Shown: positions 9,487 to 28,575, counted from the stretch's first letter. The stretch: DNA of 64,000 bases from an uncultured virus (IMG/VR IMGVR_UViG_3300002220_000874) (IMGVR_UViG_3300002220_000874), one strand, 5' to 3'. A program made the numbers and translations. The notes: generated by a model not told the origin, from the letters alone.

Positions 9487-12400
9487 ATGAACACAAACAA
9501 TCCTACTATTTATGATTTACCTGATGGCACTAGTCCATCAGGTAATTTGATTGATATGAGTAAATATTCATTTCAACCAACAACTATGGCTGGTAGAGCT
9601 TCTGCCCCTGCCACAAGACAAGATGTTGAAACTTTTAATAAATTAAAAGGTTATATTAATAACCCTGCTATGGGATTTAACCCATCTAATATATATGAAA
9701 CTGCTGCTAGAAATCAAGGAGGATGGGAATTATTAGGTAAAAGTTTAGTTCATACTCTTGCTGAATTTACAGGAGGTATAGTAGAAGGAGCAGGAGGATT
9801 ATTGAATCCTTATAGTTGGGCAGCTATTGCATCTGACTCAGCTACTAAGTTTGAAAGAAATTTACTTCAAGAATTAGGTCATTTAATGAATCAAGGAGTA
9901 AAAGATGCTTTACCTATTTATCAAACTAAGAAAGCACAAAAAGGGTTTGCTCTTGCTGATGCTACTTGGTGGGCATCTATGTTTCCTACTGTTGCTAGTA
10001 CTGCTGCATCATTTGTACCAGCTGCTGCTGTATTAAGAGGAACAAGTATGTTAGGTAAAACATTAAATGTAGGAAAAGGATTACGTGCAGCAGGCAAACA
10101 TGCTACCGCAGGTAGAGTGCTTGAAAATGTATCAGCATCTATTATGTCAAGACATATTGATACTTATAGAGAATCTATTGGTACATTTGAACAACAATAT
10201 CAACGACATAAAGATTTAGGATTTTCTGATGAAGAAGCTAAACGAATGGCAGGAGAAGCTGCTTCTATAGGTATGCGATATGGCTATAGTAATATTGTAT
10301 TTGATATGGTTCAATGGGGAGCAATATTACGAATGGGTAATAGAGCATCAAAAGGTATCAGTACAGAAGTAGCAAAAGCAGTAGGAAGAAAAGAAGGATT
10401 TAAAGCAATAGCTGCTGCTGCAAGTGCTGTTGCTAAAAAACCTATGTCCTTTGGTGTTGATTTAGGATTAACTGCTTTCTCAGAAGCAGCTGATGAAGCT
10501 ATGATAGGATTCTGGCAAAAAGAAGGAATATATGAAGGAGATAAAAAGAATTTATCTAAATATTATGATAAGCTTCATACTGAACATAATATTATGGATA
10601 GATTTGCTTCTCATATGGGAGATAGACATACATGGGATGAAGCCTTTTGGGGAGCATTTGGAGGAGCAGGAATGATGATAGGTAGAGCTGGTATTAATAA
10701 AATAGTAAACCCTAAATCAGCAAAAGACTTAAATGATAAGATGGCAGATAAGATTATTACTACTGCCAATAATCTTAAAAACTCTTTAGCACAAGCAACT
10801 GAATTAATCGAACAAGGTGATCCTGTATCTGCTAAAATAATACTTGATACAATGGTTCTTGGTCTTGTGGATAATGCAAATTCAACAGGTTCATTAAAAG
10901 TATGGAATGAATTATTATCAAATATTGAAAATGCTACAAATGAAGAGTTAAAAGAATTAGGTTTAGATGCAACAATTAAACCTTATTTAAAAGAAATAAA
11001 ATCAGATTTACAATCAGCAATAAAAAGTTCTGAAGTATTTACTACAAAAGATTATAGTACTCCTACGCATAAGTTTACCGATGATGAAAACTATTTCATA
11101 GGTAGTAATATTACTAGAAATACTTACATGATTGAAAAGCTTGATAAAAGAATACAAGAATTAGACTCACAAAGAACAGAAGAAATAAATCAGATAAATC
11201 AGATTAAGGCACAATTAGGTACTATAAGCGCACAAACCTTTACTGATTTAATGGGAAAGAATGAAGATAAGAAAGCAAAAGCATATACGAAGATAGCAAA
11301 AGTTAACGCAGGTGTATCAGAAGCATTACTGCTTCAATATTCAACTCTTCAAGATATACAATCTAAAAGAGTTATGGAAATGCAAAATCATGCTACTTTA
11401 GCAATATCAATTGCACATTTAGAAAATGCTATTAAAAGTTCTAATACTCCTGAATTAGTTAAAAATGAATTTAAGAGACAACTTAAAACAAGTAAAGAAC
11501 TTCTCGAACAATCTAAAATACAATTAGATGATTTAACAAAACAACTAGAAGATGGAGATAAAGTAAGAGAAGAATTAGTAAATAGCACTGGTGCAACAGA
11601 AGTTAAAGCTACAAAAGATTTATATAATTTAATTCATAATGTTAGAAATACTACTACTGCTAATACTATTGCTTCTTTAAATAATAGTAAGGATAAAATG
11701 ACTAAGCAGCTTGCAGAATTTAATGATGCTAAAGCTGTTAGAAAAATGATTGATGAAATAAGGAAAGAAAATGATGATGCTCATAAAACAAAATTAACTA
11801 TTGCTAAAGCTCAACTTGAAAACTTAAATGTTGGACAAGAAAATGAAATTGATGAAATTGTAAAAGCTTTTCCTGAATTAAAAACAGAAGCAGACGCAAA
11901 ACGAAAGAAATTAAAACAAGAAGCAAAAGATATTAATAATATAAAAGAAGCTGGTTTAAAAGCAAAAGTAAATGAGTATAATAATGCTCTTAATCAATTA
12001 GATATTGTTTTAAAAAGTAACCTTAAATTAGATTTAGCTTTTCGTTCTGAGTATGATGATATTAAAACAAAAGAAAAGAAAACAGTAGAAGAATATGATG
12101 CTGCTATAAAACAAATAAATACTCTACTTGCTACTATTAAAGGTGAACCTAAACCTGCATCTACTCCTACGACTACTCCTACATCGACATCCACTTCTAC
12201 CTCTACGCCTACTGTAAATATTACGAATAATGAACTGATTGATATTTTATATAATAGGTCATTAGTATATACTAATATTACATCATTACTATCAATATTG
12301 GAAGCAATTCAAAATTATGATATTGCTACATTAGCTAATGAACAAGATGGTAAAAATTTAATGATTGCTGTAAAGTTAATTCAACTTCAAGCAGCATCAT

Positions 12401-15400
12401 TACATCTTAAACTATTAGATATTCATCCTCTTATAAATAAGACAGAATTAACAATAGATGAGATAGAATTAATTGCAACTACTTATGCAGAGGTAAAGTT
12501 ATTTCAAGGCTTAATGAAAGAACACGCTAAATTAAATTTATTAACTGACCATAGTGATTTCGATCTTGCGATAAAAGGAACAAAAAATAGAGCTATATCT
12601 CATTTATTGACTTCATTGAGTGCTGCTTTATCTATTACATATAAAAACGTTCAAGGGTTTGACCAATACAATATTACTAATAATAAAGCAATACAAACAT
12701 ATAATACCTTAGCAAAAAAACTATTAGCGTTTGATACACTTGCAGAACATGGTGATGCATTAGAAGCAAATGATTTAGCTAATGGTACTCCTGTTAATGA
12801 GGTATTACTTGCAATTGAAAGATACGTTAAATCTATAACAAAAGATAAGAATGTTAAAGATATTACGTTTGAAGATTTAATGAATAAGATATTTACTACA
12901 GTAAAATCAAAAGACCAATTTCTTGCAACAGGAAAACTACTAAAAGACTTTTACAATGCTTTACATAATAAAGGTTTACCTAGTGAAACAATTAAAGTAG
13001 AAGAAGTAACAGTTGAAATAAATGAAGAATATTACGATAAGATATTAAAAGATAATAACAAACATATGAGGTATATTACTGTACCTTATAAAGAAGGTTC
13101 TTATTTTAATTTTAATATATTTAACATTGAAGATTCTGATGAGATTAAACTAACTCCTGAACAATCTGAAATGTTTAAAGAATATTTAAATCTTAAACAA
13201 GGAGATATTGTTACTATTAAAAAGAATGCAAAAGGTGAATATGAAATGCACAAAGGAGATAAACCTTTAGGTGTTACATTATCTCAAGCATATCAGGATT
13301 TTAGAGGATTTAACTATAGAAATAAAAATGGTAAATTCTCATCATTTGTTGATAGTTTTACAGTTAATGACTATGAACAATTATTAAGTAATATGAAATT
13401 TTTAATAGATGCTTTTAACAATGATAACATAGATGATTTACCTTTATCAGTAAAAAATATAATACTAAAAGCATTAAATCATAATAATGATAACAAGTAT
13501 CAAATTGAAGACTTAACTATTGAAAGAATTAAGCTTGTTATCTCTCCTATATTTTATGGATTGGATAGAGCTAGTTATAATGATTTAATAGGTAAAATGA
13601 CACTTGAAGAAATACAATATAATTATTTTAAATTAAATTCTTCATTAGCTAAAACAAATCATTATACAGAACAACTCGAAACATTATTAAAAACTATAGA
13701 CCAAGTAGAACTTAAAATACATACTATCTCTCCTGGTCAAATGCGATACTCAAATCAAGTACGTGATAACGCAATAGAAGCAGGATTAATATCTGATTTA
13801 ATTCCTCTTCCTAGTTCAGGAAAATATACAATCGGATTACGAAATCCTAATAACAGAAGACAGATTATAAATATTTATACAGGAGAAGAAATACAAGCAG
13901 AGAATACTCATATATTAAAAAATAGTAATAATAAAGTAATTGCTTTTATTACTACTGAAATTCATGGTAAAACTTATCTTGCAGGAATTGATATAGGACG
14001 AACAAGTAGTGTTGCTAGTGGTGATTTCGGTAAAAAGTTAATAAAGGCTACAGAAGCAAAATTATTACAATGGTTTAATAGCCCAAAAGATACAGGAGGA
14101 TTTGAGTCTTTTTTGAGGAAATATTATAGCTATAATAACGATAAGCAAAAGAATGACATAATGTCAATCTATACACATGAGGGAGCTAAAGTATTTACTT
14201 TTACAAGTGGACAAGGAAATCAAGTTAAACTAGTAAAAATAGTATCAAGTCCTTTGGACACTGTTCCTAAAATATTAATATATAATGATGCTAAAGATAC
14301 TGATAAATATACAAAGAAAGAATTTACACCAGATGAATTTGCTAAACATATAGGAGGAACACTTAGAGGAGTATTATCTTATATTACTAAAGATGGAAAA
14401 CTTGAATCACTAGTGGAATCAAAAGAAACATTTACAGATGAGATTACAGGAAAGACATATGCTACTCCATTAGAATTTTTAATTGATACAGGAGCATTTG
14501 TTACTAAATTAGACCCTGTTGTTGATAATAATGGTAATCCATTATCTGTATTTGATCCTACTGGTTCTCCTAAGGCTACAATATTTGCAACAGTTCACAT
14601 GGAAGATGCTGCTGTAAAAGCTGTACCAACTAAAGCAAAGAAAACAAAAAAATCAAAAGAAGATACTAAAAGTATTTCAACAGAAGAGGTAATAGATGAG
14701 TATTTTCCTGAAGTAGCAGTAACAGTAGATGATAAATCATTTACTGACTTAAATGAATTTCTCGAATATATTGCAAGTAAAGGAGAAATGACTTATGATG
14801 AATTTATTAAAGCTTTTAATGATCATCTAAATGCTGAAGATTTAAGTTTAGTAAATGCTGTTCTTTCTGTTATTTATAATACTCCTATTAAATTTAAAGT
14901 ATCGCTTGACCCAAAAGCATCTAATCCTAATGCTACTGCTGATTATAGTAATGAAGTAGTTACAATTTATGCTCCTAAGTTTTTTGTTAATGCTAGTAAT
15001 CAGACAAGAGGTAAAATGGAACAAACAGCTATTGTATCTCACGAAATGTTACATGATTTATTTGAAGCATTTAAAGTACTATTAGACGAGGAAACATTAA
15101 ATACATTAAAAGATGAACTATCTCGTATTGTAGCAGAAATAAAAAATGTAATACCTACATTAACTAAAGAACGACAAACAATATTAAACAATTGGATAGC
15201 TCAAATAGATAAAGCTGATATTAGAGGTGATGGTTGGCAAGAAGTATTAACGTATGCGCTAACCAATATGGAATTAGCACAAACATTAGTATCCATCAAA
15301 ACAAAATCAGCAGATAGAAGTATTGTTATTGATTTCTTTAAAAAGATATTTGACACTCTTGCTAAATATATAAAAGCATTACTTAATGTTGATATTGCTT

Positions 15401-18400
15401 TAGAAAAGAATACAGCGTTGTATGATATTATTGCTGCTACAGCAGTATCATATGATGTAATAACAAAAGCTGAAAATGATGCGTTTGCATTTGAAGATAA
15501 AATACAAAGAGATATTAATAATGGCATTGACTCTAGTGACGGTAATAATGCTCTTGATTTAACCGCAAAAGAATTATACGATAGAATGATTCAAACAGAA
15601 GGAAATTTAACTCCTTCAGAATTAGCACTATTTGAAGAAAAATATGATAGTAGTTTTGTTGCACTTAAAAGAGCATCAGAAAATAGAACTACATTATCTG
15701 AATGGAATGACCTACCTCTTACACAATTAGGAGATGTTAAAATATTTAGAACACTCTTTTTCAATGAAGTGAATTATTATCTTAATAGATTTGCTGGTAC
15801 AACATATACAAGGTCAAACGCTAGAGCAGGTGGATATGAATATACAGTAAAAATACCAAAACCTACTTTAGAAAGTTCAGACTTAACTATTGATACTAAT
15901 ATAAAAGCTCCTGGTTCTAACTTTACAAATATTGAAAAGTATGGACTTAGAAATCTTTACACACATCAAGTATTAAAGAATGTTAGCACTGATGGTAAAG
16001 CAGTAAATATTCCTACTTTTAGAGATTACAAAGAAGGAAACAAAGAAACTATTAGAACTCTTCTTGTTTCAAGATTAGAACAATTGAAAACAGTTGATGG
16101 AGCTAATGTTGAATTATTAGATAGAGCTATAGTTGATATGAAAAATCCTAATAGTGAAACATTTGATACATTCGTAATGTATTTCAATAATAAACTAGGA
16201 GGAGAAATAGTTGACATTGAGCTATGGTCGTATGAGAATGAAAAGGACTTTTCAGAATACATAGAGAAGTCATTTGAAGAAACTGATATGTTAAGAATGG
16301 ATGTTAAAGATAAAATAACAACATATCTTAAATTTAGATTAGCTCAACTAGCAATAAAAAGAAGTACTGTTACAGGTCTGACTGAAGCATTGGACATTGA
16401 TGAGATTTGGTTTACATTACACTCTGCTCATAGATTTGATACAACTGTTGATGATTTTATAAATACTCTAAAAGTATTAGGTAAAGGTGATGAACATTTT
16501 TCGCATATTGCTGTTGAACTTGAAACAGCACAAAATAGAAATAGCCCAGAAGATATTGATTTTCTCAATGGATATCTCAGTATGGCTAGAATGTCATTAC
16601 TTGAAGTATATGCCACAACATTAGAAAATCTAAACGGTAGAGAAACTATTGACTTCTCTATTCAAAACAGAGACTCATGGGGAACATTCGGTATATTTGA
16701 TACTATCTTTAGAAGAGCTATAACTATTTCTGATACTAAAGATGTTGATGATTTAATGAGATTGTATGGAGAACTAATAGCAATAATAGGAGATGATGTA
16801 GCACCTAACTCAAAACAATTAATGAAAGAATTGTTAGAGTATCGTGTTCATAATAAACAAGGTGAACTAATGTCAAAAGCACTCAGTATAACTACTGCTT
16901 CTAAAGGTGAGTCATTACCTTTAACTCAATATAAGGCATTAACTTTTGATTTAGCATCACAATTAAATCCTAAAGGAGGTAAACATTCTGATTTAATTGC
17001 TGAAAAGTTAACAACAGGAAATGGAGCTGTTATATTAGATCAAATCCTACAACAATTAGATATTAATGTTATATCTAAATTAGAAGCTAAAGATATTCAA
17101 AAGATAGCATATAATGTAATTCATATTGCTGAAAGTATTTTAAGAAATGCTTTCTTTAATCATGAAGAAAGTTTCTTTGATTCTGCTTCTTATGCTATGG
17201 GAATAGCAATAGCATCTGCACATAAAGGAATTAGACCTACTAAATTCGATTATCTTAACGTAGATAATAACTCTGAGTTTTCATTAAATCAACCATTCTA
17301 TTTATCTGATGTATTCAGAGGATTAAATGACCCTGATGATGATAAAGTAAGAAGAAGAATAGATGAAGAGTTTTTACAATTTACAAAAGACCCTAGAGGA
17401 AACTTTTCAAATTGGTTGTGGCATCAGTTAAATGTAATAGGAGAAGATGGAACTCAATTATTAGGTACAAAGGATAAAGCAACAGGCATATTTCAATTTA
17501 GTTCTGAAAGCAGATTAGATAGAAAGCTCGCAAAAGATAATAACCCTGATTATGTAAGAGAAATGTTCGGGTTGGCATCTTTCAATGGCTTAAAGTTTAT
17601 CGAACATAAACTAGGTTTAAAGGCTGATAAAATAGTAAACAATACCTATGATTTAATTGCTTTATCTACATTCCTATTATCTAGGAGTAATGCAGCAAAT
17701 AAATATAGTAAAGACCCTCTAAGAGCATCTAAAGACATTCAATCTGAACAAGGATTTGCATATTACACTATTCCTATGTCAGATAGTCCTAGAACTATTT
17801 TAATGAAAGCTCCTAGGTTTAATGTGTTGAATGATTTAGATACATCATCTGATGTACTTAAATTAGATAGAACAAGTACAACATTTAAGGCATTACAAAA
17901 TATTATATATCAAGATTTAAATGAATTGTTCACTGCTAGAGATACTATCTTTAATAGAAGTAAAGCAGGTAAACTTACTGTTAGGAACCAGTATGACCCT
18001 AAGAATAAAAATAATAATATTGCTTCTGATCTTCATGCAATTAAGCATCTAAAACAAGATAAACAAGGTAATATAACTCTTTTAGATAGTAAGGGTAATC
18101 CTACAGGAAAAGTATTCCATGCTAGCACAATGAGTTATAAAACTAAAGATGGTAAAGTAGTTACTTTATTTGATTATCTAAAAGAAAAGGCTAATGCACT
18201 AGAAGCATGGAAATATGAAACATTAGAACAATTTGTTAATGCGTTCCAAGATGAAATAAATGATTTCATTGAAATTGCTACTCAAGAAAGAGTAACAAAA
18301 GATATGGAACGTCTTGCTCCATTACAAAAAACATTTGATGATTATCATCAAAGGGAGAAACTAAATAGAAGAAGTACTCAAAAACTTGTTACAAATGACA

Positions 18401-19965
18401 AAGATTGGCAACATAAAATGTTTGATTTCTCTATAAATCAATATATTGTCATGAATGAAGTAGGTAATCTATTTGGAGGAGCATTAAGTGAATATGATAC
18501 AGGTATTGAATTAAATAAAAGATACGCTCAATATGCAAAACCTGGTAATGTTCCTGCAACAAATAGAGAATTTACAACTATTAAAGTTATTGACCCTGTA
18601 GGAAAAGTAAGTGAGGAAATACTAGAAATATTAAAACAACATCTATCTCCTGCTCAAGTAAGAAAGTATACAACAATAGCAACAGCTGATGGATTTAGTT
18701 TTATTACTATCGAAGAGTATGAAGAGAGAATGAAAGAAGTAGGAAAGTATCAATTATTTAAGGATATTATTGATGCTCTTAAATCTGATAAACCTTTAAA
18801 TCACTATCAATTCTCAAGACACCTTGAGTCATTAAAGTACTTCTATTATGATAGACAAGTGAAAGGTAGAGATAGTAAAATGACTCTTGATGTAGATAAT
18901 GCTACTCCTTATAATTATGCTTATTCAACACAAATTAAACACTCTGCTATTGTATTAAGTAATAATATGTATGTTGGTTCACAATTACATGACCTCTACA
19001 AATATATGAGAGAAAATGGAATAGACCAACTTGATATGAGTAGTTCTCAAAAAGTTACAAGAAATGTTGGTTTTAAATTATTTGATGAAAACAATAATAT
19101 TAATTTTAATGCTCTTGAAGATGTTAAACCTTATATAAATATTAGAAACGCTAAGAATCTTAGATTACAACAAGAAACAAAACCTCACATGATGGATGAG
19201 GTTATTAAATTAGGAGTTCAAATATCTAAGATTATATTCAACGGTTTAGTATCTGATGGTACATATAAATTAAATAACGGTAATATTAAAGGAGAAGAAT
19301 TATTTAAACATTTCAATAAACTTAATTCTGCTAATATTCAATCTAGTGTACTATCTCTATTATCAAAATGGGGAGCAGTTAAAGATGGTAAGATTAATCG
19401 TGATAATAATGGTAATATCTTAGTTGATACTAGACTTATTACAAAAGAATTAAGACAGTATGTTTATGATGAAGGAATTGATATGAACTTATATAAGAGT
19501 TTACAACCTGATGAAGCAGGTAACTCTAAACTTCCTATTTGGGCTCCTATAAGTCATAAGAAACTTACATCAATTCTTCTTAGTAAATTTACGAAGAATG
19601 TTATTACTCAAAAACTACCAGGTATTCATGCTCCTATTATTCCTAATATATTAGTTAATAAATCACAAATGATGTCTGATGCAGATGTTGGTAGTGCAGC
19701 AGCATTAGGAGAAATAGTACAAGATAATAGTGCATTACTTGAAGAATTTGGAATAACATTCACAAATGAAGAAAATGAATTATGTGCTGCACAAGGTTTA
19801 ACTGATGGAATAAAAGGTAAAAACTGGAAAGTAGTAAAAGAGTTTAAAGGTAAATCTCACGCAGAAGGAGGAATTGATATTAAATTAAATTCTGATGGTT
19901 GGAGTTTTAGGTCAGGAGGAAAAGATATCAAAGCTAAATATGGACTTTTAATACCAAACAATTAA
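9487..19965 (+). CDS. Giant virion protein: ejection-type N-terminus, zincin-like protease domain, C-terminal beta-like half of the virion RNA polymerase
   Basis: HEMLH at 15040-15054 followed by QEVLTYALTN. C-terminal KRYAQYAKPG, TADGFSFIT, KYFYYD, QIKHS, LRLQQE, ITQKLPG segments resemble crAss-like RNAP. Lies upstream of the DFDID gene. Confidence 0.8.
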   Translation: MNTNNPTIYDLPDGTSPSGNLIDMSKYSFQPTTMAGRASAPATRQDVETFNKLKGYINNPAMGFNPSNIYETAARNQGGWELLGKSLVHTLAEFTGGIVEGAGGLLNPYSWAAIASDSATKFERNLLQELGHLMNQGVKDALPIYQTKKAQKGFALADATWWASMFPTVASTAASFVPAAAVLRGTSMLGKTLNVGKGLRAAGKHATAGRVLENVSASIMSRHIDTYRESIGTFEQQYQRHKDLGFSDEEAKRMAGEAASIGMRYGYSNIVFDMVQWGAILRMGNRASKGISTEVAKAVGRKEGFKAIAAAASAVAKKPMSFGVDLGLTAFSEAADEAMIGFWQKEGIYEGDKKNLSKYYDKLHTEHNIMDRFASHMGDRHTWDEAFWGAFGGAGMMIGRAGINKIVNPKSAKDLNDKMADKIITTANNLKNSLAQATELIEQGDPVSAKIILDTMVLGLVDNANSTGSLKVWNELLSNIENATNEELKELGLDATIKPYLKEIKSDLQSAIKSSEVFTTKDYSTPTHKFTDDENYFIGSNITRNTYMIEKLDKRIQELDSQRTEEINQINQIKAQLGTISAQTFTDLMGKNEDKKAKAYTKIAKVNAGVSEALLLQYSTLQDIQSKRVMEMQNHATLAISIAHLENAIKSSNTPELVKNEFKRQLKTSKELLEQSKIQLDDLTKQLEDGDKVREELVNSTGATEVKATKDLYNLIHNVRNTTTANTIASLNNSKDKMTKQLAEFNDAKAVRKMIDEIRKENDDAHKTKLTIAKAQLENLNVGQENEIDEIVKAFPELKTEADAKRKKLKQEAKDINNIKEAGLKAKVNEYNNALNQLDIVLKSNLKLDLAFRSEYDDIKTKEKKTVEEYDAAIKQINTLLATIKGEPKPASTPTTTPTSTSTSTSTPTVNITNNELIDILYNRSLVYTNITSLLSILEAIQNYDIATLANEQDGKNLMIAVKLIQLQAASLHLKLLDIHPLINKTELTIDEIELIATTYAEVKLFQGLMKEHAKLNLLTDHSDFDLAIKGTKNRAISHLLTSLSAALSITYKNVQGFDQYNITNNKAIQTYNTLAKKLLAFDTLAEHGDALEANDLANGTPVNEVLLAIERYVKSITKDKNVKDITFEDLMNKIFTTVKSKDQFLATGKLLKDFYNALHNKGLPSETIKVEEVTVEINEEYYDKILKDNNKHMRYITVPYKEGSYFNFNIFNIEDSDEIKLTPEQSEMFKEYLNLKQGDIVTIKKNAKGEYEMHKGDKPLGVTLSQAYQDFRGFNYRNKNGKFSSFVDSFTVNDYEQLLSNMKFLIDAFNNDNIDDLPLSVKNIILKALNHNNDNKYQIEDLTIERIKLVISPIFYGLDRASYNDLIGKMTLEEIQYNYFKLNSSLAKTNHYTEQLETLLKTIDQVELKIHTISPGQMRYSNQVRDNAIEAGLISDLIPLPSSGKYTIGLRNPNNRRQIINIYTGEEIQAENTHILKNSNNKVIAFITTEIHGKTYLAGIDIGRTSSVASGDFGKKLIKATEAKLLQWFNSPKDTGGFESFLRKYYSYNNDKQKNDIMSIYTHEGAKVFTFTSGQGNQVKLVKIVSSPLDTVPKILIYNDAKDTDKYTKKEFTPDEFAKHIGGTLRGVLSYITKDGKLESLVESKETFTDEITGKTYATPLEFLIDTGAFVTKLDPVVDNNGNPLSVFDPTGSPKATIFATVHMEDAAVKAVPTKAKKTKKSKEDTKSISTEEVIDEYFPEVAVTVDDKSFTDLNEFLEYIASKGEMTYDEFIKAFNDHLNAEDLSLVNAVLSVIYNTPIKFKVSLDPKASNPNATADYSNEVVTIYAPKFFVNASNQTRGKMEQTAIVSHEMLHDLFEAFKVLLDEETLNTLKDELSRIVAEIKNVIPTLTKERQTILNNWIAQIDKADIRGDGWQEVLTYALTNMELAQTLVSIKTKSADRSIVIDFFKKIFDTLAKYIKALLNVDIALEKNTALYDIIAATAVSYDVITKAENDAFAFEDKIQRDINNGIDSSDGNNALDLTAKELYDRMIQTEGNLTPSELALFEEKYDSSFVALKRASENRTTLSEWNDLPLTQLGDVKIFRTLFFNEVNYYLNRFAGTTYTRSNARAGGYEYTVKIPKPTLESSDLTIDTNIKAPGSNFTNIEKYGLRNLYTHQVLKNVSTDGKAVNIPTFRDYKEGNKETIRTLLVSRLEQLKTVDGANVELLDRAIVDMKNPNSETFDTFVMYFNNKLGGEIVDIELWSYENEKDFSEYIEKSFEETDMLRMDVKDKITTYLKFRLAQLAIKRSTVTGLTEALDIDEIWFTLHSAHRFDTTVDDFINTLKVLGKGDEHFSHIAVELETAQNRNSPEDIDFLNGYLSMARMSLLEVYATTLENLNGRETIDFSIQNRDSWGTFGIFDTIFRRAITISDTKDVDDLMRLYGELIAIIGDDVAPNSKQLMKELLEYRVHNKQGELMSKALSITTASKGESLPLTQYKALTFDLASQLNPKGGKHSDLIAEKLTTGNGAVILDQILQQLDINVISKLEAKDIQKIAYNVIHIAESILRNAFFNHEESFFDSASYAMGIAIASAHKGIRPTKFDYLNVDNNSEFSLNQPFYLSDVFRGLNDPDDDKVRRRIDEEFLQFTKDPRGNFSNWLWHQLNVIGEDGTQLLGTKDKATGIFQFSSESRLDRKLAKDNNPDYVREMFGLASFNGLKFIEHKLGLKADKIVNNTYDLIALSTFLLSRSNAANKYSKDPLRASKDIQSEQGFAYYTIPMSDSPRTILMKAPRFNVLNDLDTSSDVLKLDRTSTTFKALQNIIYQDLNELFTARDTIFNRSKAGKLTVRNQYDPKNKNNNIASDLHAIKHLKQDKQGNITLLDSKGNPTGKVFHASTMSYKTKDGKVVTLFDYLKEKANALEAWKYETLEQFVNAFQDEINDFIEIATQERVTKDMERLAPLQKTFDDYHQREKLNRRSTQKLVTNDKDWQHKMFDFSINQYIVMNEVGNLFGGALSEYDTGIELNKRYAQYAKPGNVPATNREFTTIKVIDPVGKVSEEILEILKQHLSPAQVRKYTTIATADGFSFITIEEYEERMKEVGKYQLFKDIIDALKSDKPLNHYQFSRHLESLKYFYYDRQVKGRDSKMTLDVDNATPYNYAYSTQIKHSAIVLSNNMYVGSQLHDLYKYMRENGIDQLDMSSSQKVTRNVGFKLFDENNNINFNALEDVKPYINIRNAKNLRLQQETKPHMMDEVIKLGVQISKIIFNGLVSDGTYKLNNGNIKGEELFKHFNKLNSANIQSSVLSLLSKWGAVKDGKINRDNNGNILVDTRLITKELRQYVYDEGIDMNLYKSLQPDEAGNSKLPIWAPISHKKLTSILLSKFTKNVITQKLPGIHAPIIPNILVNKSQMMSDADVGSAAALGEIVQDNSALLEEFGITFTNEENELCAAQGLTDGIKGKNWKVVKEFKGKSHAEGGIDIKLNSDGWSFRSGGKDIKAKYGLLIPNN

Positions 19966-19966
19966 C

Positions 19967-20437
19967 ATGAAAAATCAAAACATTGAAGTTGAAGGAGGAG
20001 AACTCCTAATTCAATCAGAAGAAGGACATTACGCTATTATTCCTAAGAAACATAGGAAAGAAGTAGAAGATATGATTGCAGGTAAATGTGATGGGTGCAT
20101 TAATGATTACATCCAACATTTACCTAAAAATAATAACTATGCTGAAGATGGTACATTATTACCTGAAACAAATAATCCTACTTTTGGAGATGAACCATAT
20201 GCTAGTAAGCGTCCTTTATCTCCTCTAGCTCAAAGAGTATTAGGAGATAATACTAATATTAATCTTAGGTCTCCTGAGTTTGATACACAATTATCACAAG
20301 TACAATCTGCTCTAAAAGAACAATTATTAGCATCTCCATTAGATGCACAAGGAGAAGAAGATTTACTAAATGCTGGTAAACCAAAGACTCAACCTGATTA
20401 TCATATGCCTATTATATTTAGCTATTCAAAAATATAA
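19967..20437 (+). CDS. Small protein beginning with an EVEGGE motif, inside the inter-RNAP cassette
   Basis: 156 aa ORF starting 1 nt after the previous stop; contains EVEGGELLI, CDGC and YAEDG. Confidence 0.6.
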   Translation: MKNQNIEVEGGELLIQSEEGHYAIIPKKHRKEVEDMIAGKCDGCINDYIQHLPKNNNYAEDGTLLPETNNPTFGDEPYASKRPLSPLAQRVLGDNTNINLRSPEFDTQLSQVQSALKEQLLASPLDAQGEEDLLNAGKPKTQPDYHMPIIFSYSKI

Positions 20438-20450
20438 TAGATTTAATCTA

Positions 20451-20642
20451 ATGAGAGAATACGGAAAAGATAAAAAGAACTCTTACGAATATGCAGAAGA
20501 AGCAGATTTATCGTATGTTAATAAAATATTAGAACAAATCGGAGATATTTCTGTTATTGATAAAAGTGGTAAAAAGTATAAATCTCCACTAGATAATTTA
20601 AGAGCTAGTGAAAAAGTTTTAGCTAGAACATTAACAAAATAA
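20451..20642 (+). CDS. Small hypothetical protein, or +1-frame continuation of the previous ORF
   Basis: Frame is open from 20370; in-frame ATG at 20451 lies 13 nt after the previous stop. Confidence 0.4.
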   Translation: MREYGKDKKNSYEYAEEADLSYVNKILEQIGDISVIDKSGKKYKSPLDNLRASEKVLARTLTK

Positions 20643-20652
20643 TATTAAAGTA

Positions 20653-23600
20653 ATGGCAAAAGCACAAGCAGGATGTTTACCTACATATAAAGGTAAAAGA
20701 TATAACTCTATCGAAGAGTTAATCAAAGAAAATAACTTAGAAACAGCAATTCAAAGTAGCATTAATGATTCTAAGACTGATTCATCTATGAAAATTCAAT
20801 ATACTAAAGAATTTATGGATGATGTACGAGCTGGTAAAAGAGATTATAATCTAAAATACGGTAAGACTTATGAACATGGTCAACTTGTAACATATGTTGA
20901 AGCAGTTATAAATCCATATTCATCTAAGTTTATGATTAATGGTAAAATGCTAGATGTAGCAGATATTGATAAAATAAATAGTGACGCATTAAAAATGTTA
21001 GGTATGCGTATTCCTACTGAGGGTATGCAATCAATGGTATTAATAAAAGTAGTAGGATTTATGAATAATGCTGCATCAGTAGCAATGTTTCCTGATGAAT
21101 TAATATCTCAAACAGGACATGACTTTGATATTGATAGTATTTATATCTATTATAGAAATCTTGAAGTACAGTCAGATGCTTTAGGTAGGGATGTTAAAAT
21201 AAATATTGTTCCTTATTATGAAGATGAAGCAGATGGAAAACGTTACGAAGCTTGGAAATTAGATAGGCGTAATGGTATTCAAGAAAGTGTTATGTCTACT
21301 CTACTAAATAATGGATTTGAAAATAGTCTTGAAAGAAAGACAGCACTTAAAAAAGAATTAGGTGTAAGAATGTCAAAAGCTAGAATAGCAAAAAGTGAAC
21401 ATAATAAGTTTTGGGAAGATTCAATAGCTACTCAAAAAGGTATCATAGATATAGTATTTATGAATATGCCTTCTGAACTAAAGAAACATTTCAATAGAGA
21501 AGATTTTACAGAATTAAATGATTTACTAGAAGAATTTATAGCTATATATGATAATGATGTATTTCCTACTTTTGGTAAATTAGAAAATAAGAAAAGAGCT
21601 AAACAACATTATAATCCTAGAGATTATAAAACTTATCGTACATTAAACTCATACATGATAGATGAAATGAGTATGCTCACCGATAAGATAAATCTTCTAT
21701 ATGATGAGATTGAACTAAGACAAGAAGCAGAAGAAATAAGTGATGAACAAGAATTAATAAAAATAAAGACTGAATTAAAAAAGTTAAACAAAAGAATTAA
21801 TGCAGCAAAAGATGAAATATATAAAGAGATATATGATTCTTTAAACGATGAAGAAAAGAACACTAGAGCTGCTAGAGAAAATAGAATAATTGATGTATTT
21901 GAATCAATCCTAAAAGATGAAAAGCATCTTCCTGCAACTGTTAAACCTAATAGTATGGAAGAAAGTGTAGATGCTGCAACATTTATAAATAATTTATACG
22001 GAGAAGGAGATACAGAAATTAATCTTTTCTATTATTCTGATATGGCAGGAGTTAGAGATATAAATATGTCTATCAGACAATTGAAAGCTAATGTTGTAGG
22101 TACACAAGGAGTAATGGCAGCATTAGGTAAAATAAAAGCACATTTCAAACATGGTATATCTGTAGTATTAACTCCTAAACAAGTTGGTAACAGAACATTA
22201 GAAGAATTGCAAACTATCGTAGGAGTTAAAAACGTTATTAAAGTAGGGAACAACTATCAGATTACTTCTCAACACTTAAACAACAATGCAATTGGTACAT
22301 GGAATGATATATTAGGAGTAAATATTTCATCTCAAGCAGCACAAACAACAAGTCATATTCTTGATGCTGTTAAAGAACTTATGGGATTTAATATAAATGA
22401 ACATACATTACCCGTATATATGTTAATGGTATTTAGTGAATTAAGTATGTTATTTAATAATGCACAAAATGAATTAACTCCTAATAAATTTATTCTTCCT
22501 AATCTATTCATACATCAACCTATCCTTATTGAGTATGTAAATAAGATAGTTCGTAATCAAATAGACCAATACTCTTCAAGAAATGGTATTCCTGGTGAAT
22601 TACGAAATGAGTATATTGTTAAACTAATTAATGCAGTAGATATAAGTGCTACAATAAAAGAATTAGCTGAAACAAAATATAAGATTGATGCAGACAAAGA
22701 AGTTTATATACGTCGTACTACTAACATTATTGATAAAGCTAAAAAAGATAAAAAGCTAAGTGATGAAATGTTAGATATAGTAAAAGATATATCAGAACAT
22801 TATGAAAATAATAAATTAGATACTTTTACTAAATTACTAGAAAATATTGAACTGCGTGATAGTAATATTGTAAAGTTTTATGCAAGACAATTAAATCATC
22901 TTGATACATTTCAATCTTATAATGCTAAAGCTGGTTCTATTATATCAGCAGTAGCAACAGTTAATACAGATAAGAAGAAACTAGGTCCTGATGCAAGTGA
23001 TACAAGTCTTATTATAGATAAGATTAAACTTGAATACGAAAAAGCATTAGATGAACATGAAGCAGATGTAGAAGATTCTACTGTAATTCTTGTAAACGAT
23101 GAACCTTTATTAGGAGCAATATATCCTAAGTTTTTAGGTTTAGAGAAAGAAAGTGTTTATCCTATATATGAAGCTTATTTAGAACATGGTGCTAAAACAG
23201 CACTAGATGTAATGATAGCTCTTTCTCCTTTAAACTCTCCTGTAATGAGAAGATTTAAAGAAGATGTACTATCTAATATCATTAACTCAAATAAACGAGT
23301 TGATATTGAAAATGCTATTAATGGATATGCTACATTCTACTTTACTCCAATGTCCGAGTATTTTAAATTTGATGAATTTGATACTGAACTTAACGAACAA
23401 GCAAAGATACTAAATTTAAAAGCAAGGATAAATGGTACATTAGCAGAATGGATGGATAACCATGTATCATGGGAAACAGTAGCAGGTAAAGGAGAAATAC
23501 ATTTACACACTTCCGAACAATTTGAAAAGTTTAAAGTGTTATCATTAACTAATAAACTAAATCTAATAAAGAAATCTAAAAGACATTCAGCATTTATAAA

Positions 23601-26600
23601 TGACCCCTCATATAAAGGTGCAAATATCTTAAACGTTGTATATTCTTTAGATAGTAGGCAATATTACAATAAACATCTAAGCACAAACATAGGTATAAAT
23701 AAGATTGATGTTACTAAGGATTTTACTATTGATAGTTTCATTCAAATGTTTTACGGTAAAGATATATTCCTTAAAGATATTGCATTGGATTTATTACGTC
23801 ATACTTATTTTAATCATGGATTAAACTTTGGTAATAACATATCTAAGTTTATACCTGTTGATATATTGTTTGATGGCAATGAGATAATAGGAACTTATGC
23901 TCAAGATTTATATGCTCTTAAACAAGGTATCACAGAACAAGCAATGCCTGAATTTATTAAGAACTTTTATAAATCACATAGTAGTGAAACAGCATTAGTA
24001 CCTACGGTTAATGCTAAAAATATAAGTGAAACATTAAAATCTAAATTGATTAATTTTGTATTTGAAGATAACACAGGTATTAGATTTATCCCTGTTAATC
24101 AAGAATTATTAAATCAAAGTCATATAGGTAATGCTCCTTATATAACTATATCTTCAGTAGGAGAGAAAACTCTAATGAAAAGATATGAGTTTGAAGATAG
24201 TATAAATCCTATAGATATCTTTGTTCCTATTAGTAAATTAAATGCGTATGAAAGAGAACAAAGTTCTAATATTTTAAACCTAGAAACAAATCTTTGGAAT
24301 GAAGAAATAGATGGAGCTATATATAAAGGTACATTAGGTTCAGAAACTGAAATGGATAAAATCGTACAAGATTTATTCTCATCTAGTAACTTTAGAGATA
24401 TAGCAATTAATACTAATGCTAGTTATAAAAGTCAACAGCGAGATGCTCAATCATTAGAGTCTGCTGATATTTCTGTAAGTAGTCATAATAGTCAGACAGA
24501 GGCAGTAAAAGAAATGGCTAAGAATTATGATACAATATATTATGTCGGAGATGAAAACTCAACTGAGTTTAAATTACTAAATTCAAAAGTTGCATTACAA
24601 CCTATTCCATTTCATAACGCAAAACAAGTAGCAAGAGAAATAAATAAAAAGAATAAAACTAAAATTGCTATTATAGGTAATATTCCTGATAGTAAAGATA
24701 ACAGAGCACAAATATTAGAAGTTATAGAAAGAATACAAAAATATAACCCTAATCTTGAACGAATTGGAACATTATCTAATTCTAATATATCTTCAGTAAT
24801 TAAAAGAGCAACTACTGTACCAGTAGACCTTTATACTTCTAATGAGTATATTCCTAGTTTAATAAAAACTAATGTTCTCGAATCTCAAGATTTATTAGAA
24901 GAAGACTCTCAGACAATAGCACTTAGTCAAGAGATTAAATCAATGCAATCTGCATTAGATAAACTATATAAGCTAAACCATAAATATAGACAAAGTGCAG
25001 CTCCTTTTCGTGCTCAATTAGAAACGATTATAGAGCATATGACTAAAGATAAAATTCAATCTAATTTAAACTATGGACAAATTGCAACATTATACGGTGC
25101 ATCAATAAATGTAAAAGAAGTATTGACTCTAATTCAACCACATCTTAACGATATTATAGATGAATTACGCAAGTATAATATGAATACTATAGTTGCTCAA
25201 TCACAAGAAGAGCATAATAAAGTAGTAGGTAAAATACTTGAAGGATTAGACTTAATAGCTTTTGCAGATATTATGGCTGAATTAAATGAATTAGAATATA
25301 CTAGTATAGCGGAACAAGGAGAAGCACAAATATTCAGAGATTATAATAATTTAGTAAAAGAAATAAAACAATTAAGAGAAGAAATAGATACTCATCATAA
25401 ATCTTTAATGATTCATGCAAAAAGTTATATGACAGGTATTGTTAGTTATAATAGTTCAAATAATACAAAGTTTATAACTCGATTTGAAAAAGAATTTAAA
25501 GATTTTACTCTAACTGACTTTACACAAAATATGTTAAAGATGTTAGAGAATAATGAGGATATAACAGTATATCAATTATGGTTAGATACAATCTTTAGTA
25601 CAGGTGTATCTATGATAGATAACATGATGCTGGAATATGCTAAATTATTAGGAGAACAATATCGAGAAAGAACTGATTTATTAGATGCTTTTGTTGATGC
25701 CTATGCTGCAACATTTGGAGCTAAATATTTATTAAATCCACAAGAAGTAACAAAAGGAGAAGTACCAAAATATGATAGAAAAGCTGTTACAAATTCATCA
25801 AATTCATCAAGAACTGATAGAAGTATAACATTTAAAACTAGATTATTAGATGGTGAAACAGGTAGACTTGTATCTGAGTATGACTATTATAGGTATTTTA
25901 AAGAAGAAAGAGCTAAACGAAATGCTATATATAAACTTCAAAGAGAATTAGCAAGAGAAACATCAATAGGAAATAATCCTAGAATAAATTATCTTGACCA
26001 ACAAATAAAAGATGCGTGGAACAAATACAATGAATGGTACGATAAAACTAATTTATCTAAAGAAACAGAATCTTCTAAACTAAGTGACCAAGAATTAATA
26101 CATTTAGAGAAGTTAAAGATTGAATTAGGTGAACGTAAATTTAAACAATATTTAAAACGTGAACATATCGCTACTGTACAAAAGTTTCAAAGTAGAAAAG
26201 GAAGGAAGAAAAGTGTAATTACATATAGACGCATTGTACTTGATGATACATATAAAAATGCAAAGTATGAAAAGTTATCACAACAGGAAAAAGATTTACT
26301 TAAACTTATTCAACAAACTATAAGTGGATTACTTCAATCTACTTATAATGAATTTAATGTAACTCCTGATTTCTTTCCTCTAGTTATGCCAATGACATTA
26401 GAAGCAGCAATAGTTGAAAACTTCTTAGGTTGGCAAAACATTAAACCATCTAATCTATCGCAAGGTATTACAAATGAATTATATAGAGTGTATGACCCTC
26501 CTATGATGTCTTATATTCAATATCAACAAGTATATGAAATACCATTTAATCTTGAAAATGAGTCAGATAAATTAGAAAAAGTAAATAAAGAAGTAGCAAA

Positions 26601-28575
26601 ACGTGCCGCAAAAGATAAAAATGCAAGAACCGAACCTTTTAAATCTTATGAAGAAATACTAACTTATAATGAGGAAATAGAAGAAATCAATAGAAAGAAG
26701 ACAATCGAGAAGATGATTACTGACCCTTATGCAGTAATGTCAACATTTATAAGTATGGTATTAGAACATAAGAAAACAATTAACTTTGCAAATAGAGTTA
26801 ATGTACTACGTTATGTTATGAGAGATCCTGCTGTTAAATTTCATAAAAAGGTTAAAGGTAGAACTATTACAGTATTAGGAAAAGAAACAAATGCTTATAA
26901 GAGATTAGAAGGATTTATACCTACTTTACATGGTGATAGTAAAGTTAAAAAGAGTATTGATAAGGCATTAAGTGCAATGAAACAATGGACATCTCTTACT
27001 TATATGGGATTTAATATAACAGGGGGTATCAAGAATATAATGCACGGATATGGTAATGAACTAATGGAATCTGTAGCTGGAGAATTTACTACTAGAACTG
27101 ATCTCCGTTGGGCTATGAAAACTTATCTATTCAAATCTACTAAAATAATAGGAGCAATAGGCAGCGAATACTCTGATGATGTTGATGTAGCCATAATGAA
27201 GAGATTTGGTAATCTTCTTGATTTGAAAAACGAAGAAGCATTTGAAAGAAATGAAGATGATAAAAGACTTCATAGATTTTTAATGGCATCATCTATTCCT
27301 TATTTTATGAATAACATGACTGAGCATTTTATGCAATACACTATGTTATTAGGTGTATTAAAAAGTTCAAGAATTGTTAAAGGTAGAATAATGAATTTTA
27401 CTCAATACGCATCTGAAACTAGATTAGCAACATTAAAAAAAGTATTATCTAATAGTGCCTATGCTGATTTAATAAAATGGTTAACTGCTCAAAAGAAGTC
27501 TAATCCAAATTATTCAAATAATCCATCTGATTATATTAGACAATGGGTATTAGGTAAAACTGATGGTACTCCTAATTTAACAAGAGAAGAGAAACGTAAT
27601 TATAATAAAGAAATACTTATTGTTGAAAAAGGATTACAAGAAGAGTTCTTAAATTTTGATAGTGCGTATGACCAATTTGAAGTAAAGAATGGAAGAGCTG
27701 TACTAAAAGAAAATGCTAAAATTACAAATGAAGAAGTTGATTTATTTCAACAGCACGTACACAAATTAAATCAATCATTACATGGTATATATAATAGAAT
27801 AGATAGACATATGTTAAAAGATACTATATTAGGTGATTTAGCATTTCAATTCAGGTCATGGATGCGACCAAACTGGAATAGGTTCTTTGGTGTAAGATTT
27901 GGAAAAAGTACATTTAATGAAGGACTTAGAAGTTTTAGAAAAGGAGCATTTATAAGTCTAGGTGAATTCTTAGCAAGTCCTATTATATATAATTATCAAG
28001 CATATAAACGAAATGACATTGAAGGTAAACAAGTATTTGCTAGAATATTATCTGATTATAAGAGCTTCTTTAGTAATGTAATATTACATTGGAGATCAAT
28101 GTCATTACAAGATAGACAAAATGCTTGGAGAGCTCTTGCAAATTTACTATATCTAGCAAACATTGGATTACTTCTAACATTTATAGGATTTCTTGATGAT
28201 GATGACGAAGAACAAGCATACATGACTGCATTATTAATATATGAATTAAATGCAACATTTACTGATACATCTGCTTTTATTCCTATAGTAGGTTGGATGG
28301 GTACATTAAGTAGAACAAAACAATACACTATGGCTAGTGAGAGAGTAATAATAGATAATATCAAAATGATGTGGCAATTATTAAGTTATCCATTTGCATC
28401 AGATAAGAGTAAATATTATAGGTCAGGTATGTACAAAGGTAAGAGTAGATTGGGTGTATCTCTTATGAAGAATACTCCTATTGTAAGACAAGGACATAAG
28501 TTCCAATATATACCTTATTATACTAAATGGTATGAACTTCATAATCCTTTTACCTCTCTGATTCCTAAACTATAA
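20653..28575 (+). CDS. Giant virion protein with the catalytic beta-prime-like half of the virion RNA polymerase
   Basis: MRIPTEGMQS and QTGHDFDIDS (DFDID at 21121-21135), NTRAARENRIID, ILDAVKE; long helical C-terminal region with a hydrophobic segment. Confidence 0.88.
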   Translation: MAKAQAGCLPTYKGKRYNSIEELIKENNLETAIQSSINDSKTDSSMKIQYTKEFMDDVRAGKRDYNLKYGKTYEHGQLVTYVEAVINPYSSKFMINGKMLDVADIDKINSDALKMLGMRIPTEGMQSMVLIKVVGFMNNAASVAMFPDELISQTGHDFDIDSIYIYYRNLEVQSDALGRDVKINIVPYYEDEADGKRYEAWKLDRRNGIQESVMSTLLNNGFENSLERKTALKKELGVRMSKARIAKSEHNKFWEDSIATQKGIIDIVFMNMPSELKKHFNREDFTELNDLLEEFIAIYDNDVFPTFGKLENKKRAKQHYNPRDYKTYRTLNSYMIDEMSMLTDKINLLYDEIELRQEAEEISDEQELIKIKTELKKLNKRINAAKDEIYKEIYDSLNDEEKNTRAARENRIIDVFESILKDEKHLPATVKPNSMEESVDAATFINNLYGEGDTEINLFYYSDMAGVRDINMSIRQLKANVVGTQGVMAALGKIKAHFKHGISVVLTPKQVGNRTLEELQTIVGVKNVIKVGNNYQITSQHLNNNAIGTWNDILGVNISSQAAQTTSHILDAVKELMGFNINEHTLPVYMLMVFSELSMLFNNAQNELTPNKFILPNLFIHQPILIEYVNKIVRNQIDQYSSRNGIPGELRNEYIVKLINAVDISATIKELAETKYKIDADKEVYIRRTTNIIDKAKKDKKLSDEMLDIVKDISEHYENNKLDTFTKLLENIELRDSNIVKFYARQLNHLDTFQSYNAKAGSIISAVATVNTDKKKLGPDASDTSLIIDKIKLEYEKALDEHEADVEDSTVILVNDEPLLGAIYPKFLGLEKESVYPIYEAYLEHGAKTALDVMIALSPLNSPVMRRFKEDVLSNIINSNKRVDIENAINGYATFYFTPMSEYFKFDEFDTELNEQAKILNLKARINGTLAEWMDNHVSWETVAGKGEIHLHTSEQFEKFKVLSLTNKLNLIKKSKRHSAFINDPSYKGANILNVVYSLDSRQYYNKHLSTNIGINKIDVTKDFTIDSFIQMFYGKDIFLKDIALDLLRHTYFNHGLNFGNNISKFIPVDILFDGNEIIGTYAQDLYALKQGITEQAMPEFIKNFYKSHSSETALVPTVNAKNISETLKSKLINFVFEDNTGIRFIPVNQELLNQSHIGNAPYITISSVGEKTLMKRYEFEDSINPIDIFVPISKLNAYEREQSSNILNLETNLWNEEIDGAIYKGTLGSETEMDKIVQDLFSSSNFRDIAINTNASYKSQQRDAQSLESADISVSSHNSQTEAVKEMAKNYDTIYYVGDENSTEFKLLNSKVALQPIPFHNAKQVAREINKKNKTKIAIIGNIPDSKDNRAQILEVIERIQKYNPNLERIGTLSNSNISSVIKRATTVPVDLYTSNEYIPSLIKTNVLESQDLLEEDSQTIALSQEIKSMQSALDKLYKLNHKYRQSAAPFRAQLETIIEHMTKDKIQSNLNYGQIATLYGASINVKEVLTLIQPHLNDIIDELRKYNMNTIVAQSQEEHNKVVGKILEGLDLIAFADIMAELNELEYTSIAEQGEAQIFRDYNNLVKEIKQLREEIDTHHKSLMIHAKSYMTGIVSYNSSNNTKFITRFEKEFKDFTLTDFTQNMLKMLENNEDITVYQLWLDTIFSTGVSMIDNMMLEYAKLLGEQYRERTDLLDAFVDAYAATFGAKYLLNPQEVTKGEVPKYDRKAVTNSSNSSRTDRSITFKTRLLDGETGRLVSEYDYYRYFKEERAKRNAIYKLQRELARETSIGNNPRINYLDQQIKDAWNKYNEWYDKTNLSKETESSKLSDQELIHLEKLKIELGERKFKQYLKREHIATVQKFQSRKGRKKSVITYRRIVLDDTYKNAKYEKLSQQEKDLLKLIQQTISGLLQSTYNEFNVTPDFFPLVMPMTLEAAIVENFLGWQNIKPSNLSQGITNELYRVYDPPMMSYIQYQQVYEIPFNLENESDKLEKVNKEVAKRAAKDKNARTEPFKSYEEILTYNEEIEEINRKKTIEKMITDPYAVMSTFISMVLEHKKTINFANRVNVLRYVMRDPAVKFHKKVKGRTITVLGKETNAYKRLEGFIPTLHGDSKVKKSIDKALSAMKQWTSLTYMGFNITGGIKNIMHGYGNELMESVAGEFTTRTDLRWAMKTYLFKSTKIIGAIGSEYSDDVDVAIMKRFGNLLDLKNEEAFERNEDDKRLHRFLMASSIPYFMNNMTEHFMQYTMLLGVLKSSRIVKGRIMNFTQYASETRLATLKKVLSNSAYADLIKWLTAQKKSNPNYSNNPSDYIRQWVLGKTDGTPNLTREEKRNYNKEILIVEKGLQEEFLNFDSAYDQFEVKNGRAVLKENAKITNEEVDLFQQHVHKLNQSLHGIYNRIDRHMLKDTILGDLAFQFRSWMRPNWNRFFGVRFGKSTFNEGLRSFRKGAFISLGEFLASPIIYNYQAYKRNDIEGKQVFARILSDYKSFFSNVILHWRSMSLQDRQNAWRALANLLYLANIGLLLTFIGFLDDDDEEQAYMTALLIYELNATFTDTSAFIPIVGWMGTLSRTKQYTMASERVIIDNIKMMWQLLSYPFASDKSKYYRSGMYKGKSRLGVSLMKNTPIVRQGHKFQYIPYYTKWYELHNPFTSLIPKL

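Follow-up and report, generated by a model that had tools for sequence, protein, structure and literature searches.

A three-part gene-junction cassette within the virion RNA polymerase of a divergent crAss-like phage

It is still an open problem how crAss-like phages package several megadaltons of giant proteins, an RNA polymerase (RNAP) among them, and then send these through the tail in the correct order. Among the closest described systems, crAss001 has a cargo protein 1 (gp45) whose residues 425-552 form a compact portal-bound domain, and 12 copies of this domain interdigitate with the wing loops of the portal (PMC10172136). Tail assemblies of crAss001 are stabilised by disulfides. In the pre-ejectosome of cyanophage A4, Cys1715 in the C-terminal helix of gp27 forms a disulfide with Cys5 of gp26, as seen by electron cryomicroscopy, and thereby links consecutive ejection proteins (PMC12002296). 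Here we describe an insert of about 1 kb that interrupts the virion RNAP in a 64,000-nucleotide stretch of DNA from an uncultured virus (IMG/VR IMGVR_UViG_3300002220_000874), and we refer to this whole stretch as the window.

The insert has a three-part anatomy that recurs as a unit at gene junctions elsewhere, at variable positions relative to the polymerase active site. The cysteines of the window's junction proteins are confined to it, and a naturally fused form of its tail and EGGE domains is modelled as a single domain. We consider it reasonably probable that the insert is a complete copy of a conserved cassette that acts as a relocated docking and tether module between consecutive giant injected proteins. 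In the window, this cassette probably holds the pieces of the polymerase together.

Anatomy and recurrence of the junction cassette

The window belongs to a very divergent crAss-like phage, whose nearest deposited relative, cr127_1 (Crevaviridae), has about 28-36% protein identity to it. Positions 9487-28575 are filled by four co-directional open reading frames (ORFs), namely P0001, P0002, a 63-residue ORF (ORF63) and P0003, whose features are collected in Table 1. The first part of the cassette is an upstream tail domain with one cysteine, the pattern W.IVK.FKG.SH..GG.D and strands ending in AK.GL.IP; accordingly, the C-terminus of P0001 reads ...ELCAAQG...GKSHAEGGIDI...KAKYGLLIPNN. The second part is a gene whose first ~67 residues constitute the EGGE/CxxC domain. 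In the window this gene is P0002, which starts 1 nucleotide past the P0001 stop in a different frame with the residues MKNQNIEVEGGELLI and carries EVEGGE at 19985-20002 (in the context IEVEGGE) and CDGC at 20087-20098, followed by a short linker without an enzyme domain. The third part is a short cysteine-bearing leader, M.C.PTYKG.RYNS.EEL, on the next giant protein, here P0003.

The bounds of the insert can be drawn from where homology ends and resumes. The motif ITQKLPG lies at 19603-19623 of P0001, and the homology of most RNAP relatives to this protein stops near residues 3382-3398, at about nucleotide 19650 (tblastn). The tail module that is common to other phages begins at residue 3417 (nucleotide 19735), and RNAP homology restarts at residue 48 of P0003 (nucleotide 20794). 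Given these two positions, we place the cassette at ~19735-20793. A preliminary description of this DNA, made from the sequence alone, had set it at 19690..20790, and the left edge thus moves about 45 nucleotides inward. Otherwise its account of the locus agrees with the coordinates and homology ends: polymerase-like sequence stops after ITQKLPG and gives way to an unrelated tail, an ORF with the EGGE motif follows after 1 nucleotide, small ORFs lead to a 2640-residue protein with a leader (47 residues long) before RIPTEG and DFDID, and both motifs stand contiguously in the cargo protein encoded from 4857 (P0004). When the 64-kb window is translated in six frames, the SHxxGG and EGGE motifs are seen at just two places each.

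A profile of the EGGE domain (the first 67 residues of P0002) matched 494 cluster representatives at E<=0.001. Among the 150 of these that were listed and examined, the domain starts at residue 1-7 in 145, in proteins of 53-2271 residues, and further in for five. We took the genomic context of 50 loci (35 viral and 15 from metagenomes; handles such as L003 denote individual loci). The ORF ending directly before the EGGE gene ends in a P0001-type tail in 16 of the 35 viral and 11 of the 15 metagenome loci (27/50). One extra ORF lies between the tail and the EGGE gene in L020 and L048, and the two are fused in frame in L033. If all SH..GG domains are counted, 34 of the 35 viral loci have one in an ORF upstream of the EGGE domain or fused to it (L033), and only L026 has none.

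Each piece of the window's insert has counterparts at these junctions. Residues 3417-3492 of P0001 share 40-62% identity with the tails that end giant proteins at other loci, and a hidden Markov model from the resulting alignment of 24 sequences scores 88 bits on the P0001 tail. For the EGGE domain of P0002, identity to 11 of the 15 metagenome relatives is 66-73% (50-79% over all 15). The P0003 leader is 57-94% identical over 16-28 residues to the start of the protein encoded next after the EGGE gene (L003, L006, L009, L013, L015, L016, L017 and L019), with 94% over 16 residues in L006 and 73% over 22 in L003; in L007 the identity is 36% over a longer 49 residues. Because all three pieces match the junctions of other loci, the insert represents a whole junction: gene 2, preceded by the tail that ends gene 1 and followed by the leader that opens gene 3.

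The position of this unit relative to the polymerase active site varies. In L003, L007/8, L018, L022 and L043 the cassette follows the active site, such that the RNAP motif DFD[IV]D lies in gene 1, 800-1400 residues upstream of the tail. In L044-L047 it precedes the active site, and RIPTSG...DFD (GFRIPTSG...SDFD) lies in gene 3, ~1090 residues downstream of the leader. Only in the window is the cassette inside the RNAP core, ~110 residues before DFDID. The preliminary description had proposed a portable gene-junction module in which an adaptor gene stands between a C-terminal and an N-terminal tag, and it is this arrangement, with tail and EGGE gene adjacent in 27 of 50 loci, that we find at differing RNAP positions.

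In L005, L015, L016 and L028, an internal SH..GG domain continues in frame into sequence of the kind that gene 2 usually has behind its EGGE domain (VSELYEQITGKPW and PVMADYAGDGSLYPEE are examples); to judge from their sequences, these look like fusions that lost the stop and the EGGE domain.

Searches of curated families and deposited genomes returned little. Neither Pfam nor PHROGs had a meaningful match for the tail, P0002, ORF63, the leader or P0004, and all 51 members of the cassette-domain alignment together drew only scattered chance matches from Pfam. P0002 and the tail had no tblastn match among 50,697 phage records, and at that sensitivity the cassette is absent from deposited phage genomes. 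A search of viral contigs with the P0003 N-terminus found no close relative of this phage. A full-text literature search, supplements aside, found no paper on such a junction cassette or on junction cysteines in crAss-like phages, and the consulted parts of the crAss001, phi14:2 and Yutin 2021 papers make no mention of such a cassette. New, then, are the EGGE-type cassette itself, its placement before, inside and after the RNAP active site, and its connection with the cargo domain that binds the portal.

Where the polymerase is cut

The RNAP of the window is cut between KLPGIHA and RIPTEG by the stop of P0001, two intervening ORFs and the new start of P0003, such that its two barrels are not in one polypeptide. 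RIPTEG comprises residues 119-124 of P0003 (21007-21024) and DFDID residues 157-161 (21121-21135); together they represent the catalytic DxDxD loop preceded by its RIPxxG strand. In cr127_1 and crAss002 the region of the split site is encoded as a single chain, and the RNAP is unbroken at this site in these two phages and in five IMG/VR loci. In an alignment to the giant protein of cr127_1, P0001 (30% identity, E=1e-35, BLASTP) reaches residue 1371, and P0003 from residue 48 onward (36% identity, E=9e-25, BLASTP) aligns from residue 1358. P0003 has tblastn matches in 78 phage records, none of which covers its residues 1-23. No relative that we inspected is interrupted at this site.

The cut can also be placed on a known structure. 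A profile of seven unsplit relatives, built with the window excluded, matches residues 1044-1447 of phi14:2 gp66 (PDB 6VR4_A) at E=2.7e-32, and its first member, cr127_1, links the window's halves to this match; a direct phmmer search of PDB sequences with both halves gave nothing relevant. Read by eye from the profile alignment, the cut maps to about gp66 residues 1265-1285, in a variable-length linker immediately ahead of the catalytic barrel's first strand. We propose that the cassette was relocated into this linker just upstream of the catalytic double-psi barrel. An interruption at this point leaves P0001 and P0003 as two separate chains of the polymerase.

Fourteen residues at the two edges of the cut are alike (ITFTNEENELCAAQ and IQYTKEFMDDVRAG), and each set aligns to cr127_1 residues 1358-1371. 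A target duplication could account for this, but ITFTNEENELCAAQ belongs to the tail module found elsewhere. The giant protein of cr127_1 (L001, translated from L001:3376) has 4 cysteines in 3371 residues. One of them, residue 1368 in ITYSRDFIDRCKAE, falls exactly at the position of the window's tail cysteine (in ITFTNEENELCAAQ) and of the cut, and it could be the scar of a lost cassette or mark a recombination hot spot.

Table 1. Features of the window around the interrupted polymerase, with coordinates counted from its first nucleotide
Feature	Coordinates	Strand	Details
P0001, giant cargo-type protein	9487..19965	+	3492 residues; TAA stop 19963-19965
P0001, last ~1400 residues			N-terminal part of the virion RNAP, up to KLPGIHA (19603-19641), by tblastn to 62 crAss-like phage records
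P0001 C-terminal tail module	19735..19962	+	Residues 3417-3492 (76 residues); Cys3433 (19783-19785), SHAEGG (19855-19872)
P0002, adaptor gene	19967..20437	+	156 residues; N-terminal 67 residues (19967-20167) are the EGGE/CxxC domain
ORF63	20451..20642	+	63 residues; 90 residues if the start is ATG 20370
P0003	20653..28575	+	2640 residues; N-terminus MAKAQAGCLPTYKGKRYNSIEEL
P0003 leader	20653..20793	+	Residues 1-47; core GCLPTYKGKRYNSIEEL conserved; Cys8 at 20674-20676
P0003 remainder	20794..28575	+	RNAP catalytic barrel and downstream regions, by BLASTP, tblastn and profile homology
P0004	4857..6653	+	598 residues; SHEQGG (5232-5249) then, contiguously, EGGE (5274-5285)

Two further observations concern the locus at large. 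None of 10 large proteins or segments of the window (1-28575) has a PHROG match at E<=0.001, which places the phage far from catalogued families. A sub-threshold Rfam match to an S15 leader within the P0003 coding sequence (21115-21231; 18.6 bits against a gathering score of 39.5, E=0.27) is most likely due to chance.

Fold, cysteines and possible resemblance to a portal-bound domain

Tail and EGGE domain also occur as natural fusions. In the fused proteins P0139 and P0157 and in L033, the SH..GG motif runs directly into the EGGE domain, and the first two follow the pattern ...ITYT.EEGKPC..G...W.IV.DLKGAPSH..GG.D..I.G..VEAEG.EL.L.N..G..AIIPK..R.EV...C..C....LPK...AEDG. The fused segment of P0157, modelled from fused forms aligned together with EGGE domains and tails, is one compact domain of six strands and two helices, with a predicted local distance difference test score (pLDDT) of 79.5 and a predicted template modelling score of 0.72. 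The tail alone gives a poor model (pLDDT 50).

The cysteines of the cargo-type proteins were also located. P0001 (3492 residues) and P0003 (2640 residues) have a single cysteine each, C3433 of the tail and C8 of the leader respectively, and P0002 contributes C41 and C44, which form the CxxC. There are none in P0004, orf260, orf667 or ORF63. All four of the four cysteines thus fall within 342 of the 7,876 residues of cargo-type proteins, for which random placement has a chance of ~4e-6 by our own arithmetic, in a count that leaves out the neighbouring orf1218 with its ten cysteines. Related loci are alike in that gene 1 usually has one cysteine, located in the tail. The EGGE domain has a CxxC in 21 of the 35 viral loci, and gene 3 has a cysteine within its first 6 residues in 23 of the 35. 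C3433 and C8, the only cysteines of the two polymerase chains, fit the A4 type of pattern, with one cysteine near a C-terminus and one near an N-terminus.

The same gene rows also contain simpler junctions, at which the upstream protein has a cysteine 1-6 residues from its C-terminus (...KCHIK, ...IDCN, ...KCHG) and the next protein starts with M..C (MSKCYN, MAKCIN, MGKCLN). We found these in L003, L007, L009, L013, L017, L019, L038, L042, L048 and L050. Ferritin/Dps-like genes (PF00210, E ~1e-22) are a second kind of junction gene: one at L019:2747-3235 lies between a protein ending in ...EKAC and a protein starting with MLC, and another at L018:7227-7733 lies after the EGGE gene and before a protein starting with MTC.

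The contiguous form of the two motifs in P0004 had already been linked to the junction in the preliminary description. The link is real at the level of motifs, and it leads to gp45 of crAss001, whose portal-bound domain carries the motif. Specifically, gp45 has GGSHEEN...LVEQGEVV at residues 447-477, inside the 425-552 domain, and this domain and the cassette have the same motif order, G-SHE..G....(L/V)E.GE...IP..RKE. Residues 89-155 of P0004 match gp45 residues 414-487 at E=0.001 (BLASTP, pairwise), a match in which the SHEQGG...EGGE motif of P0004 (5232-5285) falls on the core of the gp45 portal-bound domain, and on this sequence similarity P0004 is likely a homolog of crAss001 cargo protein 1.

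The fused model points in the same direction. In an exhaustive VIA-align search with it, gp45 on the portal (7qog_M) ranks first of 48,161 chains, at a weak Z of 3.3. The alignment has a root-mean-square deviation of 3.0 Å over 68 residues (model 33-106 against gp45 438-539) and places SH on SH. We give this match weight because gp45 had been named as a target before the structure search and because of the SH-on-SH register. In the ESM Atlas, the nearest cluster that has a name bears PF25725 (crAss_CARG1); the scores, 0.79 and 0.88, both lie under the 0.9 bar. The cassette pieces and P0004 had no match to PF25725 in a Pfam copy that is not confirmed to contain that model, and the cassette profile and P0004 had no significant match among PDB sequences. 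In sum, the sequence comparisons and the model suggest a weak resemblance of the cassette domain to the gp45 portal-bound domain.

These elements can be assembled into a mechanism. Tail and EGGE domain would associate by sharing one small beta/alpha fold like that of the gp45 portal domain, and the leader of the next protein would join this assembly. The few cysteines would then lock the junction through a disulfide or a shared metal site, and the junction may be anchored at the portal. In the window, the two RNAP halves would in this way be co-packaged, exit the capsid in order and reunite in the host.

Alternative readings and known counterparts

Several results weigh against a docking and tether module of this kind. 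The tail of the split form keeps four degenerate strands, and MAFFT places these on the strands of the EGGE domain. As the tail already contains a version of what the EGGE domain is expected to provide, it may be self-sufficient, and since it keeps these strands, tail and EGGE parts overlap and are not clean halves. A comparison of the second half of the tail with the EGGE strands by hhalign gave P=2.6e-4, but in a register unlike that of MAFFT; the strands may be paralogous. The idea of the preliminary description that one domain is split across a gene boundary is to be refined accordingly: fused proteins run SH..GG into EGGE and the P0157 segment is modelled as one domain, but the two motif-bearing parts are not simple halves of it. 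Nor is the four-cysteine site fixed in all phages, given that 13 of the 35 viral loci have an EGGE domain without CxxC and that L035 retains one cysteine only. With respect to gp45, the Z of 3.3 is tied within 1 unit with unrelated rows, Foldseek of the fused model against PDB and BFVD gave no match at E<=0.001, and the cassette profile compared with a profile of the gp45 domain by hhalign reached E=0.016 at a probability of only 3%. In 19 of the 50 loci the EGGE gene comes after a protein whose SH..GG is internal or N-terminal, with no terminal tail directly upstream. Finally, the truncation of P0002 and the putative relic in ORF63, discussed below, also fit a decaying insertion, and the presence of the cargo proteins in the virion of this phage is predicted from sequence.

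A bolder form of the tether reading, which we regard as conceivable though doubtful, is that the cassette is a movable unit that cuts proteins in two. The tail, EGGE domain and leader would be a split portal-docking domain that forms one cysteine-locked domain like that of cargo protein 1 on the portal wing, such that the giant proteins are strung head-to-tail in gene order and pulled out successively. The unit could land anywhere in cargo genes, and homing endonucleases might aid its spread. If so, it could land even inside the RNAP core without loss of function because it carries its own re-joining device. GIY-YIG homing-endonuclease genes do lie exactly at cargo-gene junctions at L048:960-1631 and L050:704-1450, and in L048 the inserted gene opens by repeating the initial 12 codons (MKKQNIEVEGGE) of the EGGE gene after it. 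The window's cassette has no such gene. These genes are a possible hint at routes by which a cassette could move.

The main rival, to which we assign a low probability, is that the tail and the EGGE domain are independent adjoining modules without trans complementation or a tether. The tail could be an anchor to the portal or capsid, for example, and the EGGE domain a packaging tag of ejected cell-wall enzymes. Full-length EGGE proteins, which carry YkuD, peptidoglycan-binding or other and unknown variable C-terminal parts, are in keeping with such a tag, and the four strands of the tail and the 19 loci without a terminal tail would be readily accommodated. Against this rival, 34 of the 35 viral loci still pair both domains in neighbouring ORFs. 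The natural fusions and the single domain of P0157 also speak against independence, as does the poor model of the tail by itself. Furthermore, of the loci without CxxC in the EGGE domain, L018 and L022/23 have extra Cys in the tail (L025 does not).

We think it improbable that a recombination or homing event at a tolerant linker left the cassette behind as a decaying remnant without function, with RNAP halves that assemble unaided. The beta and beta-prime subunits of cellular RNAPs assemble as separate chains, and the split lies in a variable-length linker just before the catalytic barrel. P0002 has 156 residues against 350-770 in its relatives and lacks an enzyme part; as judged from these homologues, it is shrunk to little more than the docking domain. 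The region of ORF63 has collinear, weak tblastn matches from gene 2 residues ~127-181 of L003, L015 and L019 (E 0.4-1) and is possibly a relic of the next segment of gene 2, and the GIY-YIG genes of L048 and L050 show that homing elements occur at such junctions. Set against this loss of sequence is the state of what remains: all three conserved pieces are intact in the window and keep their invariant residues and cysteines, the N-domain of P0002 is ~70% identical to relatives, and the genes are spaced tightly, with gaps of 1, 13 and 10 nucleotides. We found no anomaly in guanine-plus-cytosine content at the cassette and no convincing direct or inverted flanking repeats that would mark a recent event, and a scan for promoters and terminators was unremarkable.

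That the split is not real at the protein level is very improbable: introns, inteins and recoded stops are known in crAss-like phages (PMC7886860) and the stop and next start are just 1 nucleotide apart, but Pfam and PHROGs recognise neither a Hint nor an endonuclease domain in the tail, P0002, ORF63 or the leader, there is no Rfam intron family in 19000-21500 at E<=1 and no transfer RNA gene in the 64-kb window, the P0002 frame is closed five codons upstream of its ATG, the frame relation of tail gene and EGGE gene differs between loci, the tail terminates proteins in 27 other loci, and the misassembly considered in the preliminary description finds no support in a Logan contig of 19,116 nucleotides (run X1), which spans 19300-21300 with 0 differences. 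This contig is not fully independent, since X1 may be the window's own sample; a second run, X2, covers only 199 nucleotides, and no RNA dataset is listed among the sequencing runs that contain the sequence.

A recurring and relocatable junction unit that contains nearly all cysteines of these proteins and resembles the sole cargo domain known on the portal supplies testable parts for the problem of ordered packing and ejection. The window also indicates that the core of the polymerase can be cut between its two barrels if end modules accompany the cut, a point of relevance to the annotation of the highly variable 'RNAP subunit' genes in Crassvirales. Tail and EGGE domain may, in addition, offer a natural pair of docking tags for engineering.

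Compared with described systems, the enzyme itself is familiar. Phi14:2 gp66 (PDB 6VR4), cr127_1 and crAss002 have the same two-barrel polymerase as the window, in one chain at this site, whereas that of the window is cut there and has gained end modules. The junction recalls gp27 and gp26 of A4, where a cysteine near the C-terminus of one protein likewise faces a cysteine in the first residues of an adjacently encoded one. In A4, no adaptor gene lies between the partners, the partner region is helical, and the bond has been observed, whereas a bond in the window would be our proposal from cysteine placement; a sequence relation between the two is not expected. For gp45 the similarity of sequence and fold is weak and portal binding is known for gp45 only, and its domain is contiguous, internal and free of cysteine, whereas the related sequence of the window lies at a gene boundary, is spread over two proteins and has cysteines. 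In both cases, the portal-bound domain of gp45 (7QOG chain M) and the predicted fused junction domain, we see a small beta/alpha domain, which in gp45 belongs to an injected protein and in the window may do so.

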